Origin: Candidatus Thalassarchaeaceae archaeon
GTDB lineage: Archaea > Thermoplasmatota > Poseidoniia > Poseidoniales > Thalassarchaeaceae
DNA length: 64,000 bases
NCBI GenBank assembly: GCA_030748775.1
Contig: JASMLH010000006.1
Span: 3,074 to 67,073 of the forward strand
Direction of reading: 5' to 3'
The position numbers and the translations under genes are program-made. Below are positions 11,456-16,196 of the stretch, in pieces. Under the pieces are notes generated by a model. The model did not search any database. It was not told where the DNA came from and was given only the letters and a program-made list of their open reading frames with translations. Within the stretch, counting starts at the first letter, position 1. Every line of letters begins with the position of its first letter.

Positions 11456-12064
11456 ATGGGCAGTAGGTCAGAAGATGGGAACGAAGGGTCCAAGATTGAC
11501 GTGAGAACCCTACCTGAATCGGTTGCCCTCCTTTGGGAAGCAATGCTCCGGCAGAATCCAAACTGGGATTTGTCAGAATGGCTAAACGAAAGGGCATCCG
11601 AAGAGCTAGGGTTGCTGGAATTGCATCTGGGAAGGGAGCGGCTTAGGCACGAGCAGAAATTGCATAGAATTGAGAACCTGGTAAAGCAACTGAAGAGAAA
11701 ACGAGAGACTGCTCAGGGAACTACATGGATGGACCCGCACCAGAGGAATTTATTCGATGTTTATGGGGCCAAAGAGGGTGGTGAAACTGAGCATTCTGAG
11801 CAAATCGATGAAATCGTTCCACTAGTTGATCTAGGCTCCCTGGGTTCTGATGATGATCCCATTCTATCGATTGTCGCAGAGCATATCATTAGTACCATCG
11901 AAGAGGTTGATCCTGCTAGGAATGGGGTGCATTTTGAGACTATCAGCAAGGCACTAGGTACCATTGGAATCAGGACTGACGAGGTGGACGAGGCCCTCTC
12001 TTGGCTATTGCAGAGAAGCATTGTATTCGAGATGGACCAAGATGTCTTCGTGATTGACGGCTGA
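11456..12064 (+). CDS. Hypothetical protein, putative DNA-binding (RHH-like N-terminus, coiled coil, C-terminal winged helix)
   Basis: IDVRTLPESVALLW..DLSEWLNE; helical RERLRHEQKLHRIENLVKQL; C-terminal GVHFETI..DEVDEALSWLLQRSIVFE..VF; fold calls by eye. Confidence 0.55.
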   Translation: MGSRSEDGNEGSKIDVRTLPESVALLWEAMLRQNPNWDLSEWLNERASEELGLLELHLGRERLRHEQKLHRIENLVKQLKRKRETAQGTTWMDPHQRNLFDVYGAKEGGETEHSEQIDEIVPLVDLGSLGSDDDPILSIVAEHIISTIEEVDPARNGVHFETISKALGTIGIRTDEVDEALSWLLQRSIVFEMDQDVFVIDG

Positions 12065-14101
12065 ATGAATTGGTTCGACCCAATAGTATCCTTCAAAGAA
12101 GATGAGCTGTTGGCTCGGCCAGACATGTCGAGCGAAACTTCTGGTTGGTATGCAAGGCTGGATCACGCATGCCCCGAAAGGGATTCTCAGATTCAGATAT
12201 GGCTTGATTCCTGGATGGATGCCACGCTGAACGGTCAGCCAGTCGCAGCTGCCCTTCCTGTTGGATGGCCCACCCTTCCAGCAGGCCTTGTAAGTAACCC
12301 GGGTGGGGTACTAGATCACCTACTTGCCAGACATGAGGCCGAGAGTGATGGTAGATCCCCACGAGGAGTTTATGCAACTCCTGCAAAGTTCGTCGATGGA
12401 ATCCTTTACGATGAGTTGCAAAAGGGAAGAAGCCAGAGAAAGGAGCCTCCAGCGACTCTCTCTCTAGCAGCACTTCCCCCTAGTTTCAGGTCGTTCGCAA
12501 GGCAGGTGAACGAAGACATTCGGGGACCTCCCTCAATTGAAAACAGTTGCTCAGGTGGCTTGGAGGGAAGCACCGAGTCCGGAATTCCTCTGCCGTTTTC
12601 GGACCCGTGTGTAGGAGCAGGGCTATTTGCCGAGAGGGTCCTTCGAATTCACGCCGAAAGAACGATGTCTATGAACCCTGAAAAAAGGAAGGAAGACACT
12701 CTCAGGCTCCTAGAAGGACTTCAGTTGATTGACTCTTCTGAAATCGCCGTGGAGAGTGCCAGAAAGAGGCTACTAATTGTCTTGGCAAGATTGGGTTTGG
12801 TAGATCTTAGGGGAGAGGGGAGCATAGGAGAGATCGGCAAAGACGAAGCCATGCTGATTCTTGAGGGCAATGTCCGCTGCGGCGATCCACTACGCGGTGA
12901 GTGGCCTTGGAACGAAAGGCCAAAACTAGTTGTTTCGAGGCCTCCTTGGCTCCGAATAAAGGACAGGTTCAGAGGACATCCCGATGGGAGTAGGATGAGG
13001 AAGGATCTATCCAGGGAGCTACGCGAGTTCAAAGATTCGAACGGAAAGCCAAGATTCTCCGCGATAAAGGGCAATGTCAATCTGTACAGACTTTTCATTG
13101 AGAGGAGTCTACAACTCTGTGAAAATGGGGGAAGGGTCAGGCTGATTGTCCCAGACTCCGTACTCAGGGAAAAGAGCAGTTCACCTCTGAGGAGGATAAT
13201 GGTCCAGGAGAACGATTGGGAGAGTGTCTGGTCCTTCCCGGATGACAATCAACTTCTATTCGGAGGCTCGCAAGGGGTTGCAGTACTGGCAATTACAGCC
13301 GGTGGAAGCACTGAGGTTCTAACGAGTTTTGGACCACTAACGACTGCAGACATCGTCCCAGGCAAGGGCCTAGACTCATCTTCCCCCTTCCTTGAACTAG
13401 AGAGGGGGCCGTGGTCGATGTGGACAGACACTAAATGGGCGGTTCCAAAAATGCCAAGGAATTCTATGGAGCGCGAGAGCACTCTAAGAGCGATTGGTTC
13501 ATTGGCGGACAAGCCCAGATTGGTTGAGGAGGGCACTTGGCTGAACCCCGGTGGTAAGCGAATAAAAGTCAGAGTTGGTGAGATTGACAGAGGATCCTGG
13601 TCCAGCAGCATCAAAGACTGGGATCCAGAAGTTCCTGGGATTCCTTTCATTCGTGGGACACACATAGATTTGGTAGATGGAGAGGTTTGCCTTGTGCACC
13701 CGGCCATCAACCCCGATGCTTCTAATGATGTCCATAACAAACTGGCGAAGTGGGAGGGTCCAGGAGAAATGCAGTCCGGACATCGAATTGCATGCCAGGC
13801 GATTGTAAATCCTCAAATTGAGCGTAGGCTTCTATGGACGGTGATTCCCCCAGGTTGTGTAATCGGGAACTCCGTCAGCTTCCTGGATCTCCCTCCCCAT
13901 GTAGTTAAAGGTCTGAAAGAGAGATTCGGGAACATCGGCAAGGGGATGGAAGTTCTGGCTAAACAACTCAATTCTGAAGAATTGGACTTGTGGTCTAAGG
14001 CTTGGGCTGCGAACAACAACGTGAACAACTACGAGATAGAGACTCTGCCATTCGAAGACTTGGAGGCGGCCCGCTCAGATTCGTATATCGGAAATCAATG
14101 A
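12065..14101 (+). CDS. N6-adenine DNA methyltransferase-like protein (gamma class, TaqI/Eco57I/Alw26I-like) with non-canonical motif IV
   Basis: GVYATP, DPCVGAGLF (SAM motif I), VVSRPPW (motif IV position), NLYRLFIERSL, LIVPDSVL, C-terminal TRD-like LNS..NNNVNNYEIETLP. Confidence 0.8.
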   Translation: MNWFDPIVSFKEDELLARPDMSSETSGWYARLDHACPERDSQIQIWLDSWMDATLNGQPVAAALPVGWPTLPAGLVSNPGGVLDHLLARHEAESDGRSPRGVYATPAKFVDGILYDELQKGRSQRKEPPATLSLAALPPSFRSFARQVNEDIRGPPSIENSCSGGLEGSTESGIPLPFSDPCVGAGLFAERVLRIHAERTMSMNPEKRKEDTLRLLEGLQLIDSSEIAVESARKRLLIVLARLGLVDLRGEGSIGEIGKDEAMLILEGNVRCGDPLRGEWPWNERPKLVVSRPPWLRIKDRFRGHPDGSRMRKDLSRELREFKDSNGKPRFSAIKGNVNLYRLFIERSLQLCENGGRVRLIVPDSVLREKSSSPLRRIMVQENDWESVWSFPDDNQLLFGGSQGVAVLAITAGGSTEVLTSFGPLTTADIVPGKGLDSSSPFLELERGPWSMWTDTKWAVPKMPRNSMERESTLRAIGSLADKPRLVEEGTWLNPGGKRIKVRVGEIDRGSWSSSIKDWDPEVPGIPFIRGTHIDLVDGEVCLVHPAINPDASNDVHNKLAKWEGPGEMQSGHRIACQAIVNPQIERRLLWTVIPPGCVIGNSVSFLDLPPHVVKGLKERFGNIGKGMEVLAKQLNSEELDLWSKAWAANNNVNNYEIETLPFEDLEAARSDSYIGNQ

Positions 14102-14233: not shown

Positions 14234-14812
14234 ATGGGCATTAATCCCAAGATTGGAATAACCGGTCTTCCTCGATCTGGGAAGTCTGCGGTGCTTCAGA
14301 AAGTAATGGACATGATCAGTGAAGAGGGTGGTGGATCCATCCGGACCCGAGGGCCTTCCCCCCCAGAACACATCATAGGAGGAATGAGGTGTGAGGCAGT
14401 CATCGAGGATGGTGAACGAGTGGGTTATGCTTGTGTGAACATCATCACTGGGGAGAAGGGGGTCATGGCTCATAGGAATATTGACTCCAGAAACAGGGTT
14501 CTTGGTTTTGGGATTGACCCGAGTGAGATCGACCGGGTGGGCGTGCCGGCAATAATGGATAGTATTGGGAACTGTGAAATCCTGGTAATCGACGAGGTTG
14601 GGAAGTTCACTGTAGAGAGTGAGGGTTTCGTTAATGCGGTGAGAGTTGCGCTACAGCACGATAAGCCAACGTTGCTAACACTTCACAAAAAAAGCAGACA
14701 TCCTCTGTTGCAGGACATTAGAAGGAGAGACGATGCTAGAATTCTGGAGGTTACCCCGGTTAACAGGTCCCTCCTGCCCTACAAGATTCACAAGCTAATT
14801 CAGGAGTTTTGA
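14234..14812 (+). CDS. NTPase (THEP1/NTPase_1 family)
   Basis: ITGLPRSGKS Walker A; LVIDEVGKF; LTLH. Confidence 0.88.
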   Translation: MGINPKIGITGLPRSGKSAVLQKVMDMISEEGGGSIRTRGPSPPEHIIGGMRCEAVIEDGERVGYACVNIITGEKGVMAHRNIDSRNRVLGFGIDPSEIDRVGVPAIMDSIGNCEILVIDEVGKFTVESEGFVNAVRVALQHDKPTLLTLHKKSRHPLLQDIRRRDDARILEVTPVNRSLLPYKIHKLIQEF

Positions 14813-15217: not shown

Positions 15218-15267
15218 GGAGCGAAACCTTGACCCGCCCTAGTCATTACGTCGAAATAAGTGAGACC

Positions 15268-15654
15268 ATGGGAGAAGTGCCGAGCGACCTTAGATACACC
15301 GCAGAACATGAGTGGGTGAGAATTGATGGGGAAAATCTGGAAATAGGCATTACCGACTTTGCCCAGGACGCATTGACAGAGGTCGTCTGGGTGGAATGGG
15401 AAAAAGAGGAAGGAGAGTCAATTGATGCTATGGAATCTTTCGCTAGCATAGAATCTGTAAAATCAGTAAGTCAGATCTACTCTCCTGTATCAGGAGAGAT
15501 TGTTGGCTTCAACGATGAACTAATGGATAATCCAGCAAGCATTAACGAGGACCCCTATGGCGAGGGTTGGATCTGTAAAATAAAGGCTTCAGACATCTCT
15601 GACTTAGGTGGTTTGCTTGACGCAAGTGGCTATGCCGAATTGATCGGAGATTGA
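15268..15654 (+). CDS. gcvH: Glycine cleavage system H protein
   Basis: LRYTAEHEWV, GITDFAQDAL, lipoyl-Lys IESVKSVS..SPVSG, INEDPYGEGW. Confidence 0.95.
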   Translation: MGEVPSDLRYTAEHEWVRIDGENLEIGITDFAQDALTEVVWVEWEKEEGESIDAMESFASIESVKSVSQIYSPVSGEIVGFNDELMDNPASINEDPYGEGWICKIKASDISDLGGLLDASGYAELIGD

Positions 15655-15656
15655 AA

Positions 15657-16196
15657 ATGACCAATCTTCGAAGGGTAAACGTGTATGTTGACGGGTCCTG
15701 CTTCGAGAATCGAAACGTAACTTCCTCTACAAGGGCTGGATGGGGATTCTGCGTCGTAGAGGGAGACTTAGGTAGAGGTAACGGGAAGGGCCAAATCATC
15801 GAAGAAATGAGTGGGGAAGTGGTGACTTCCCCGATGTCAGACGGATTCCTAGGAGCCGAGGTGGGTTCTAACAACACTGCTGAGCTCTCTGGAATCGCCA
15901 ATGCGTTGAGGTGGCTGCTAAGTCAAGGAGACGTCGGGATTGCGACAATCAAGGCGGATTCGGAGTATGCTTTGAATATCGCATCGGGGTTGTGGAAGGC
16001 TAAGGCCAACAAAGAGCTTGCCAGCAAGACCAGAAATCTGTGGGAGGAGACATCTCAGATTCTCGATCTTCATGGGGAGCATGTCAAGGCACACAGAGGC
16101 CATCGATGGAACGAGCGAGCTGACCATCTGGCGTTCCGAGCAATGCGAGGCGAGGTTCCTTTACCATTGCAGTTCTGGAAGCCCGGAAACAGGTAG
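15657..16196 (+). CDS. rnhA: Ribonuclease HI
   Basis: YVDGSC, SNNTAEL, ADSEY, HVKAHRGHRWNERADHLA. Confidence 0.9.
   Translation: MTNLRRVNVYVDGSCFENRNVTSSTRAGWGFCVVEGDLGRGNGKGQIIEEMSGEVVTSPMSDGFLGAEVGSNNTAELSGIANALRWLLSQGDVGIATIKADSEYALNIASGLWKAKANKELASKTRNLWEETSQILDLHGEHVKAHRGHRWNERADHLAFRAMRGEVPLPLQFWKPGNR

Follow-up and report, generated by a model that had tools for sequence, protein, structure and literature searches.

Introduction

Motif IV is treated as diagnostic of amino-methyltransferase activity: its Asn or Asp positions the target adenine, and in the classical description of M.TaqI the side-chain oxygen of this residue accepts a hydrogen bond from N6. Here we describe a methyltransferase-like gene at 12065..14101 (+) of a 64,000-nucleotide stretch of contig JASMLH010000006.1 (hereafter the window) from Candidatus Thalassarchaeaceae archaeon, in whose predicted product this residue is an arginine.

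The closest described system is CamA of C. difficile (PDB 7LNI/7LT5), a gamma-class enzyme and an orphan kept across a whole lineage with no link to a nuclease. As described in the text of PMC8187626, CamA carries NPPY and is an active CAAAAA methylase, in which the amide of Asn165 bonds adenine N1 and the carbonyl of Pro166 binds N6. The window protein, whose top profile and fold match is CamA, shares its class, its orphan setting and its retention across a lineage. It differs in reading RPPW, with a predicted loss of activity, and in carrying an extra conserved N-terminal domain of ~75 amino acids (aa); the two proteins are 12-14% identical in the structural alignment.

The consensus at motif IV of the amino-methyltransferases, as given in the texts of PMC8187626 and PMC10915109, is (D/N/S)PP(Y/F/W), and according to the text of the latter, a review, not even Glu at the first position is known from any active methyltransferase. 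The same text describes METTL14 (EPPL) as inactive and serving substrate binding. By analogy, METTL14 resembles the window protein in being a conserved, selected protein with a degenerate motif IV; unlike it, METTL14 is a beta-like MT-A70 protein that targets RNA and must form a heterodimer with an active paralog to do so. PglX/BrxX shares the fold class of the window protein and has a role beyond methylation; for BrxX, the text of bioRxiv 10.1101/2024.04.12.589305 reports that S-adenosylmethionine (SAM) strengthens its binding to DNA and brings order to the catalytic domain. The window protein is, however, half the size, scores far below the cut-offs of the BREX models and has no BREX neighbours. 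From the Alw26I/Eco31I/Esp3I family of type IIS adenine methyltransferases, for whose model it and its orthologs score 65-104 bits, the gene differs in being chromosomal and vertically inherited, with neither a nuclease nor a fused C5 methylase. The Pfam Eco57I/M.TaqI-like domain is matched above its gathering score, but with the motif IV Asn replaced. Taken by type, the gene has the lineage conservation and the lack of a nuclease link of the orphan regulatory methylases (CamA/Dam/CcrM) but not the catalytic Asn; it combines the degenerate motif of a pseudo-methyltransferase with purifying selection and retention; and it lacks the nearby cognate endonuclease of a type II restriction-modification system.

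A CamA-like methyltransferase homolog with arginine in motif IV

Motif IV of the window protein reads S-R-P-P-W (S291 R292 P293 P294 W295) and is encoded at 12935..12949 (+) by TCG AGG CCT CCT TGG, just as an earlier note on this DNA had read it. The codon of R292, AGG at 12938-12940 (+), stands in the profile alignment in place of the catalytic Asn (CamA Asn165), and the string does not conform to the (D/N/S)-P-P-(Y/F/W) consensus. The gamma-class order of motif X, motifs I-VIII and then the target recognition domain (TRD) on a Rossmann-type fold is present by profile, fold and motif strings. The earlier note had called this architecture otherwise intact, and all the motifs that it quoted could be located.

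The family profile retrieved CamA with E=3.2e-34, from motif X to motif VIII, with the R292 column at the Asn of CamA NPPY. In the same alignment CamA Pro166 and Pro167 of motif IV correspond to P293 and P294, Tyr168 of the adenine cage to W295, and Phe253, the bottom of the cage, to column 398. An AlphaFold2 model built from a 62-sequence alignment (pLDDT 87.4, pTM 0.85) matched CamA, M.BseCI, BrxX/PglX and M.TaqI in Foldseek (E 1e-18 to 1e-13). M.TaqI, with which the earlier note had proposed a structural comparison, is thus among the matches; the best one is CamA (E=1e-18, ~633 columns, C-terminal domain included). The motif V-VI region aligns with M.TaqI 130-185. A single-sequence search of the PDB, in which M.TaqI was only marginal (E=0.047), was superseded by the profile search.

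Among family models, Pfam PF07669 (Eco57I) passed its gathering cut-off of 25.3 with 39.9 bits (E=5.9e-10), the match spanning the second half of the model only (positions 78-169 of 171). The sole NCBIfam match, TRD included, was TIGR02987 (Alw26I/Eco31I/Esp3I adenine methyltransferase), with 76.8 bits for the window protein and 64.8-103.9 bits for 16 orthologs, all below the cut-off of 353.5. The curated BREX and MADS models remained far below their cut-offs (PglX 12.7 bits against 500, MAD2 16.6 against 720), and PADLOC assigned only generic MTase/MTase_II models to the gene.

A scan of the whole protein found no xPP[YFW] string beside RPPW, and there is thus no alternative active-site motif; a different NPP-like motif in the active site, which the earlier note had considered, is not present. 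The SAM-binding residues D180, G184, G186, D223, D274 and F344 are, at the level of sequence, all present in the window protein. By profile, predicted fold and motif order, the protein is a homolog of the CamA/Eco57I-like gamma-class adenine DNA methyltransferases with Arg at the position of the catalytic Asn.

A single origin of the basic residue

We read codon 292 in 99 orthologs. Groups in our 201-genome sample of the order are labelled as genera (g1, g2 and so on) and families (f1-f3); the window genome falls in g1 and f1, and g1, g4, g6, g7, g12 and g13 are represented by all their genomes in the sample. Arg was found in 15/15 orthologs of g1, 13/13 of g4, 9/9 of g7 and 12/12 of g12, and Lys in 4/4 of g13, giving 53 orthologs with Arg or Lys (R/K; 49 R and 4 K) in five genera. 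Asn was found in 15/15 orthologs of the sister genus g6, in 11/11 of the f1 genera g2, g3, g8, g9 and g10, and in 19 from six sampled f3 genera, where the one remaining ortholog had Asp. Orthologs outside the R/K genera therefore carry Asn in 45/46 cases, with one DPPW, and 74/74 outgroup proteins of at least 450 aa carry NPP[YFW].

The 121 close proteins read SRPPW (113), TRPPW (7) or SHPPW (1), so that the derived states at position 292 (R, K and H) are all basic. This pattern, the R or K in 53/53 orthologs and two RNA-library contigs from two studies that span codon 292 without difference bear out the view of the earlier note that a base-call error does not explain the arginine. The His sub-lineage among the close relatives consists of P0078 (662 aa, SHPPW) and a fragment, P0144.

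In a maximum-likelihood tree of 60 orthologs and eight outgroups, three changes were needed at this position: one from N to R, one from R to K and one from N to D. The R/K sequences formed a monophyletic clade (SH-aLRT 98) with g6 as its sister, and a 99-sequence tree regrouped all 53 R/K sequences. Although the tree has long outgroup branches and leaves the deepest forks of the ingroup unresolved, N is found on all sides of the root. On these trees, NPPW is the ancestral state, and a single N->R event took place in the ancestor of the five-genus clade. Position 292 is also the sole radical site diagnostic of the clade: L463M and L658I complete the diagnostic set, and another 139 sites reach 95% conservation or more with the same residue in both clades. 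Orthologs matched down to the sister genus thus show a radical difference at the catalytic residue only.

The gene is retained under purifying selection

Within the clade Arg292 is encoded by all six codons (AGG, AGA, CGA, CGC, CGT and CGG). Since the codon turned over while the amino acid stayed, Arg is held as a residue, across five genera of ocean archaea that are very abundant and for the most part uncultured. We estimated the ratio of nonsynonymous to synonymous substitution rates (dN/dS) by NG86 for within-genus pairs with dS<1.5, more saturated pairs being dropped. The ratio for the methyltransferase gene was 0.046-0.147 in 14 pairs with Arg (R-type) and 0.019-0.045 in six pairs with Asn (N-type); for the neighbouring NTPase gene of the same genomes it was 0.020-0.124 and 0.007-0.051, respectively. 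Between genera, the ratio of methyltransferase to NTPase protein distance was 2.2 for R/K pairs versus 1.9 for N pairs.

Reading frames were intact in 53/53 R/K orthologs, and the gene was kept in 52/52 sampled genomes of the five R/K genera. Six matches in the order sample hold one stop each; in L012, L016, L055 and L059 the frame is open for 649-667 aa from the conserved Met, so these stops lie upstream of the real start. Judged by these comparisons, the gene is under strong purifying selection and is not decaying.

The earlier note had proposed tabulating motif IV and dN/dS over the orthologs, and had named close orthologs with NPPW combined with relaxed selection in this copy as a sign of lineage-specific decay. 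Over the 99 orthologs the first half is what we found, down to the sister genus, but the second is not: with dN/dS of 0.05-0.15, intact frames and six Arg codons no relaxed selection is seen, and the arginine is therefore a fixed, selected, clade-wide state.

The SAM and adenine pocket changes about two-fold faster

To compare the pockets we tabulated 17 pocket and SAM positions per genus. The N-type genera are invariant at these positions apart from a few exceptions: position 103 alternates between His and Tyr, a single g10 sequence is divergent, one g22 sequence has Tyr at column 398, and a partial g6 sequence has a gap. The pockets of g12 and g6 differ by the N->R change alone. In each of the remaining R/K genera a distinct set of substitutions is seen. 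In g4, D223 is replaced by G in 5/13 (QLMG[FS]S in the raw sequences), and in g7, G184 is A or S in 4/9 and D274 is N in one. In g13, Y103 is T or S, T105 is M, and the Phe of column 398 is Ile in 1/4. In g1, T105 is P in 6/15, D364 is S or E in 11/15, and the Phe at the bottom of the cage is shifted by one residue in 14/15, the window protein included.

The rates were compared by parsimony at 16 contact positions that had been fixed beforehand from the CamA paper. These underwent 47 changes in the R/K part of the tree versus 22 in the N part (tree lengths 8.46 vs 9.04; binomial p ~0.001), while the whole methyltransferase domain, used as a control, had a rate ratio of 1.03. On this count, constraint on the SAM/adenine pocket in the R/K clade is lowered about two-fold, not abolished.

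Two other sets of sites were rejected as signs of relaxation. A list of 22 sites conserved in N-type and variable in R/K sequences did not pass a symmetric control, in which 211 N-conserved sites had 47 vs 265 changes and 185 R/K-conserved sites 248 vs 46; since this is regression to the mean in both directions, the list is not evidence. Likewise, a first pocket set (5 vs 23 changes), chosen partly post hoc, did not stand out from the remaining N-conserved sites (43 vs 247).

Other amino-methylases in the same genomes

Three R-type genomes (93-97% complete) contained the gene as their sole match among PF07669, PF02086, PF01555 and PF02384, and two N-type genomes additionally carried PF01555. 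PF02086 (Dam) and PF02384 were found in 0/5 of these genomes each, a result that concerns those two families alone. No active paralog of the gene was found in the R-type genomes.

PF01555 was present in 88/99 genomes of f3, in 19/25 of g2, g3, g8, g9 and g10, in 5/15 of g6, and in 7/52 of the five R/K genera (g1, g4, g7, g12 and g13), whose genomes are small (1.2-1.6 Mb); since related genomes are not independent, we attach no statistic to this comparison. The R-type gene may be the only amino-methylase-like gene in many genomes of the clade. Because the lineage drops one amino-methylase yet keeps every Arg copy, the Arg variant would be doing something besides methylation. The PF01555 protein itself, near-universal in f3, is a beta-class N6/N4 methyltransferase of ~320-350 aa (E about 1e-50).

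A proposed methylation-independent role and its alternatives

We lean, with modest confidence, towards a reading in which the R/K proteins are disabled as catalysts and persist because they bind DNA or interact with a partner, a view drawn from comparison of sequences. Their ancestor would have been a CamA-like gamma-class orphan N6-adenine DNA methyltransferase with NPPW, whose gene joined the core of Marine Group II and was passed on vertically. In the ancestor of the small-genome five-genus clade the catalytic Asn was exchanged for Arg, and later for Lys in one genus and for His in a small sub-lineage. A basic side chain should not serve as a hydrogen-bond acceptor for the amino group of adenine, and its positive charge would lie next to the methyl of SAM; canonical N6 methylation has therefore probably been lost or strongly reduced. 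The gene would then be retained for a role free of methyl transfer, most likely sequence-specific DNA binding through the intact fold, the TRD and the N-terminal domain, and the basic residue itself would be required, for example to fill the base/SAM pocket or to contact DNA. Since SAM aids DNA binding in BrxX, a non-catalytic descendant could by analogy keep most of its SAM contacts.

The earlier note had offered two readings, a domesticated, catalytically dead reader or an enzyme of altered chemistry. They remain the best pair, but the domestication is much older than the arginine: because the whole order carries the NPPW gene vertically, its orphan setting among housekeeping genes is not a consequence of the substitution.

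Several points weigh against a disabled enzyme. All SAM-binding residues are intact in the window protein and throughout g12, and g12, g4 and g7 retain the whole aromatic cage, as an active enzyme would. The relaxation at pocket sites is about two-fold and no larger, and the stronger pocket signal that we had seen earlier is a matter of ascertainment. Arg, Lys and His could also donate to adenine N1. Finally, the loss of catalysis is something that we infer, and the conservation of the Arg is not accounted for.

If the R/K proteins are inactive, they would be a clear prokaryotic case of a DNA methyltransferase domesticated to a non-catalytic protein and kept by streamlined genomes, and would suggest a task separate from methylation, one that the N-type enzymes may have as well. 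Annotation pipelines and the pairing of motifs with genes in metaepigenomic work would count the gene as an active adenine methylase.

It seems rather doubtful, though worth weighing, that the basic residue is instead a new catalytic solution, by which N6-methyladenine (m6A) is formed through donation to N1 or a different atom or base is methylated. Were it so, these would be the first DNA enzymes of the amino-methyltransferase fold to use Arg, Lys or His at the first motif IV position, the textbook motif would need widening, and the N- and R-type orthologs would form a natural single-residue specificity switch in abundant ocean archaea.

The first form of this idea, in which the protein is still an N6-adenine methyltransferase whose Arg, Lys or His donates to N1 while the Pro293 carbonyl activates N6, we regard as unlikely. 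It would follow the contacts of Asn165 with N1 and of the Pro166 carbonyl with N6 given in the CamA text (PMC8187626), and it fits the fact that the derived states R, K and H are all hydrogen-bond donors. The invariance of P293, P294 and W295, the intact cage in g12, g4 and g7, the intact SAM residues of the window protein and the strong purifying selection agree with it as well. Set against this, N or D is retained in 74/74 outgroups and in every ortholog outside the R/K clade, and a positive charge by N1 and the sulfonium should disfavour the reaction. The acid that binds the SAM ribose is lost in 5/13 of g4, the motif I glycine is changed in 4/9 of g7, and the contact sites change about two-fold faster. 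Moreover, no description of this gene family or of a basic motif IV residue, and no pairing of RPPW, RPPY, RPPF, KPPW or KPPY with a methyltransferase, came up in our literature search, and PDF and bioRxiv supplements may hold more.

An active SAM-dependent enzyme of altered chemistry or target, acting on another flipped base, on RNA or on another substrate, appears similarly improbable. Contacts of the basic residue with a carbonyl oxygen or ring nitrogen would here redirect the methyl group. That Arg is selected as a residue, with six codons in use, that the SAM-binding residues are largely retained, and that 292 is the sole radical diagnostic change would suit a functional switch made by a single residue. 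Such a switch, however, was accompanied by no compensating or co-evolving substitution in the pocket, which drifts differently in each genus with no convergence on a new solution; the D223G sub-lineage should bind SAM poorly, and the TRD is still of the DNA type.

Decay of the gene to a pseudogene, or an artefact of sequencing or assembly, to which the NPPW of other genera of the same family and an R-type dN/dS about twice the N-type value might be taken to point, is a most improbable reading that we rejected on the open frames of 53/53 R/K orthologs, the low dN/dS (0.05-0.15) and the retention in 52/52 genomes, to which may be added the methyltransferase/NTPase distance ratio (2.2 vs 1.9), no net excess of lost constraints (211 vs 185 sites) and RNA-library contigs with the same codon.

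RNA libraries and published methylomes

Four metatranscriptome libraries from three studies yielded eight short contigs that match the locus with at least 92% identity, two of them on the upstream open reading frame (ORF) and six on the methyltransferase gene. The shares in all these runs are small (0.05-0.09), and uncovered stretches are uninformative. The sequence of the locus is present in RNA libraries; as DNA carry-over is possible, this is not a demonstration of transcription.

Published marine SMRT methylomes include an MGIIA bin whose GGTAG motif is unassigned (PMC9516812, text and Supplementary Table 2) and Euryarchaeota bins with the m6A motifs GAAAC, GTNAC/GTWAC and GATC (PMC8919816, text and supplement file 1); GAAAC and GTNAC/GTWAC are likewise MGII motifs with no assignment. 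In the same parts of the latter source, genes with M.BsmBI/M.Alw26I as top REBASE match at 20-23% identity have no motif assigned, and one such bin is motif-free at 114x subread coverage. An identity of 20-23% fits the distance of our gene family from TIGR02987. As far as these texts and supplements go, the bins are not attributable to the R- or N-type, and we draw no conclusion from them.

Organization of the gene

The maximal ORF at 12065..14101 (+) runs uninterrupted for 678 aa, as the earlier note had stated, but the real protein is probably shorter. Because ortholog alignments begin at about residue 21 and Met21 is invariant across the R/K clade, we place the start at Met21, which would give a coding sequence at 12125..14101 and a protein of 658 aa. 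The predicted start at 12125 lies 60 nucleotides (nt) past the end of the upstream ORF.

The probable protein opens with a family-specific, helical, Trp-rich domain (residues 21-95, 12125..12349 (+)), which lies outside the CamA and outgroup alignments and is the most conserved part of the protein, with a mean major-residue frequency of 0.79 in both clades; outgroup matches begin at residue ~175 or later. Motif X follows as GVYATP at 12365..12382 (+), where Y103 corresponds to CamA Tyr30 of the adenine cage and T105 to CamA Thr32. Motif I, DPCVGAGLF, forms the SAM-binding GxG loop at 12602..12628 (+). The motif II acid D223 at 12731..12733 (+), intact in the window protein, corresponds to CamA Asp114, which binds the SAM ribose hydroxyls. 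In motif III (GDPL, 12881..12892 (+)), D274 corresponds to CamA Asp149, which contacts N6 of the SAM adenine.

Beyond motif IV, motif V (NVNLYRLF) lies at 13073..13096 (+), with F344 equivalent to CamA Phe200, which stacks on the SAM adenine. Motif VI (IVPDS, 13145..13159 (+)) contains D364, invariant in N-type orthologs and S or E in most of g1. The motif VIII region, QLLFGGSQG at 13250..13276 (+), has Leu in the CamA Phe253 column and Phe one residue later. The C-terminal TRD (residues ~411-678, 13295..14098 (+)) is homologous to the TRD of the Alw26I/Eco31I/Esp3I family and was aligned to that of CamA in the fold search; a search for motif strings placed the TRD-like string LNS...NNNVNNYEIETLP at 13967-14050 (+).

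Distribution and gene neighbourhood

The gene was matched in 158/201 genomes of the order (86/99 in f1, 71/99 in f3 and 0/2 in f2) and in 51/61 high-quality genomes, nearly always as a single copy. The window genome, 58% complete at 0.89 Mb, has one Eco57I-family match (genome search, PF07669 42.1 bits). The source names of close homologs are Candidatus Poseidoniales and Thalassarchaeaceae, and f3 would correspond to the family Poseidoniaceae. The boundary of the protein family is sharp: in an all-against-library search full-length orthologs scored E<=1e-188 and the next full-length proteins ~1e-19.

Downstream, the order methyltransferase, NTPase (PF03266), GcvH, RNase H is common to both families. 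The NTPase gene (14234..14812 (+)) is next to the methyltransferase gene in 58/60 loci, the remaining two being at a contig end. GcvH (PF01597) and RNase H (PF00075) occupy 15229-16196 (+) with a 4-nt overlap at 15651-15654, and follow the NTPase gene across most of the order. Upstream, an acidic, coiled-coil-like ORF of 202 aa (11456..12064 (+)) abuts the maximal methyltransferase ORF and has no match in Pfam, NCBIfam or PADLOC. By tblastn it precedes the gene in 29 loci, all of them from g6 or one of the five R/K genera; because it is common to the N-type g6 and the R/K genera, it arrived before the N->R change.

No nuclease or defence gene was found among the neighbours, which are an Iso_dh-family dehydrogenase, the acidic ORF, NTPase_1, GCV_H and RNase_H, and PADLOC gave no defence match and no BREX gene among them. 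The family and PADLOC searches agree here with the earlier description of an orphan with no adjacent nuclease, set among housekeeping genes. As far as synteny and distribution tell, this is a vertically inherited, near-core chromosomal gene and not a mobile restriction-modification module.

In the N-type genera besides g6 (ten loci inspected), two tandem TerB-domain paralogs (PF05099, 141-158 aa) stand directly upstream of the methyltransferase gene, as at L042:1556-1987 and L042:1993-2418 (both +), where they replace the Iso_dh gene and the acidic ORF of the window.

The gene was not found in g5 (0/4), g11 (0/3), g14 (0/2), g19 (0/6) and g21 (0/2), in genomes that are 79-94% complete and may for that reason miss it, and was found in part only of g10 (4/10) and g17 (2/10). 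It seems dispensable in some lineages.

Two long antisense ORFs lie inside the methyltransferase gene, at 12721-13248 (-) (175 aa) and 13249-13740 (-) (163 aa). Because their translations are rich in Ser, Leu and Pro, they seem to be shadow frames of the coding strand rather than genes.

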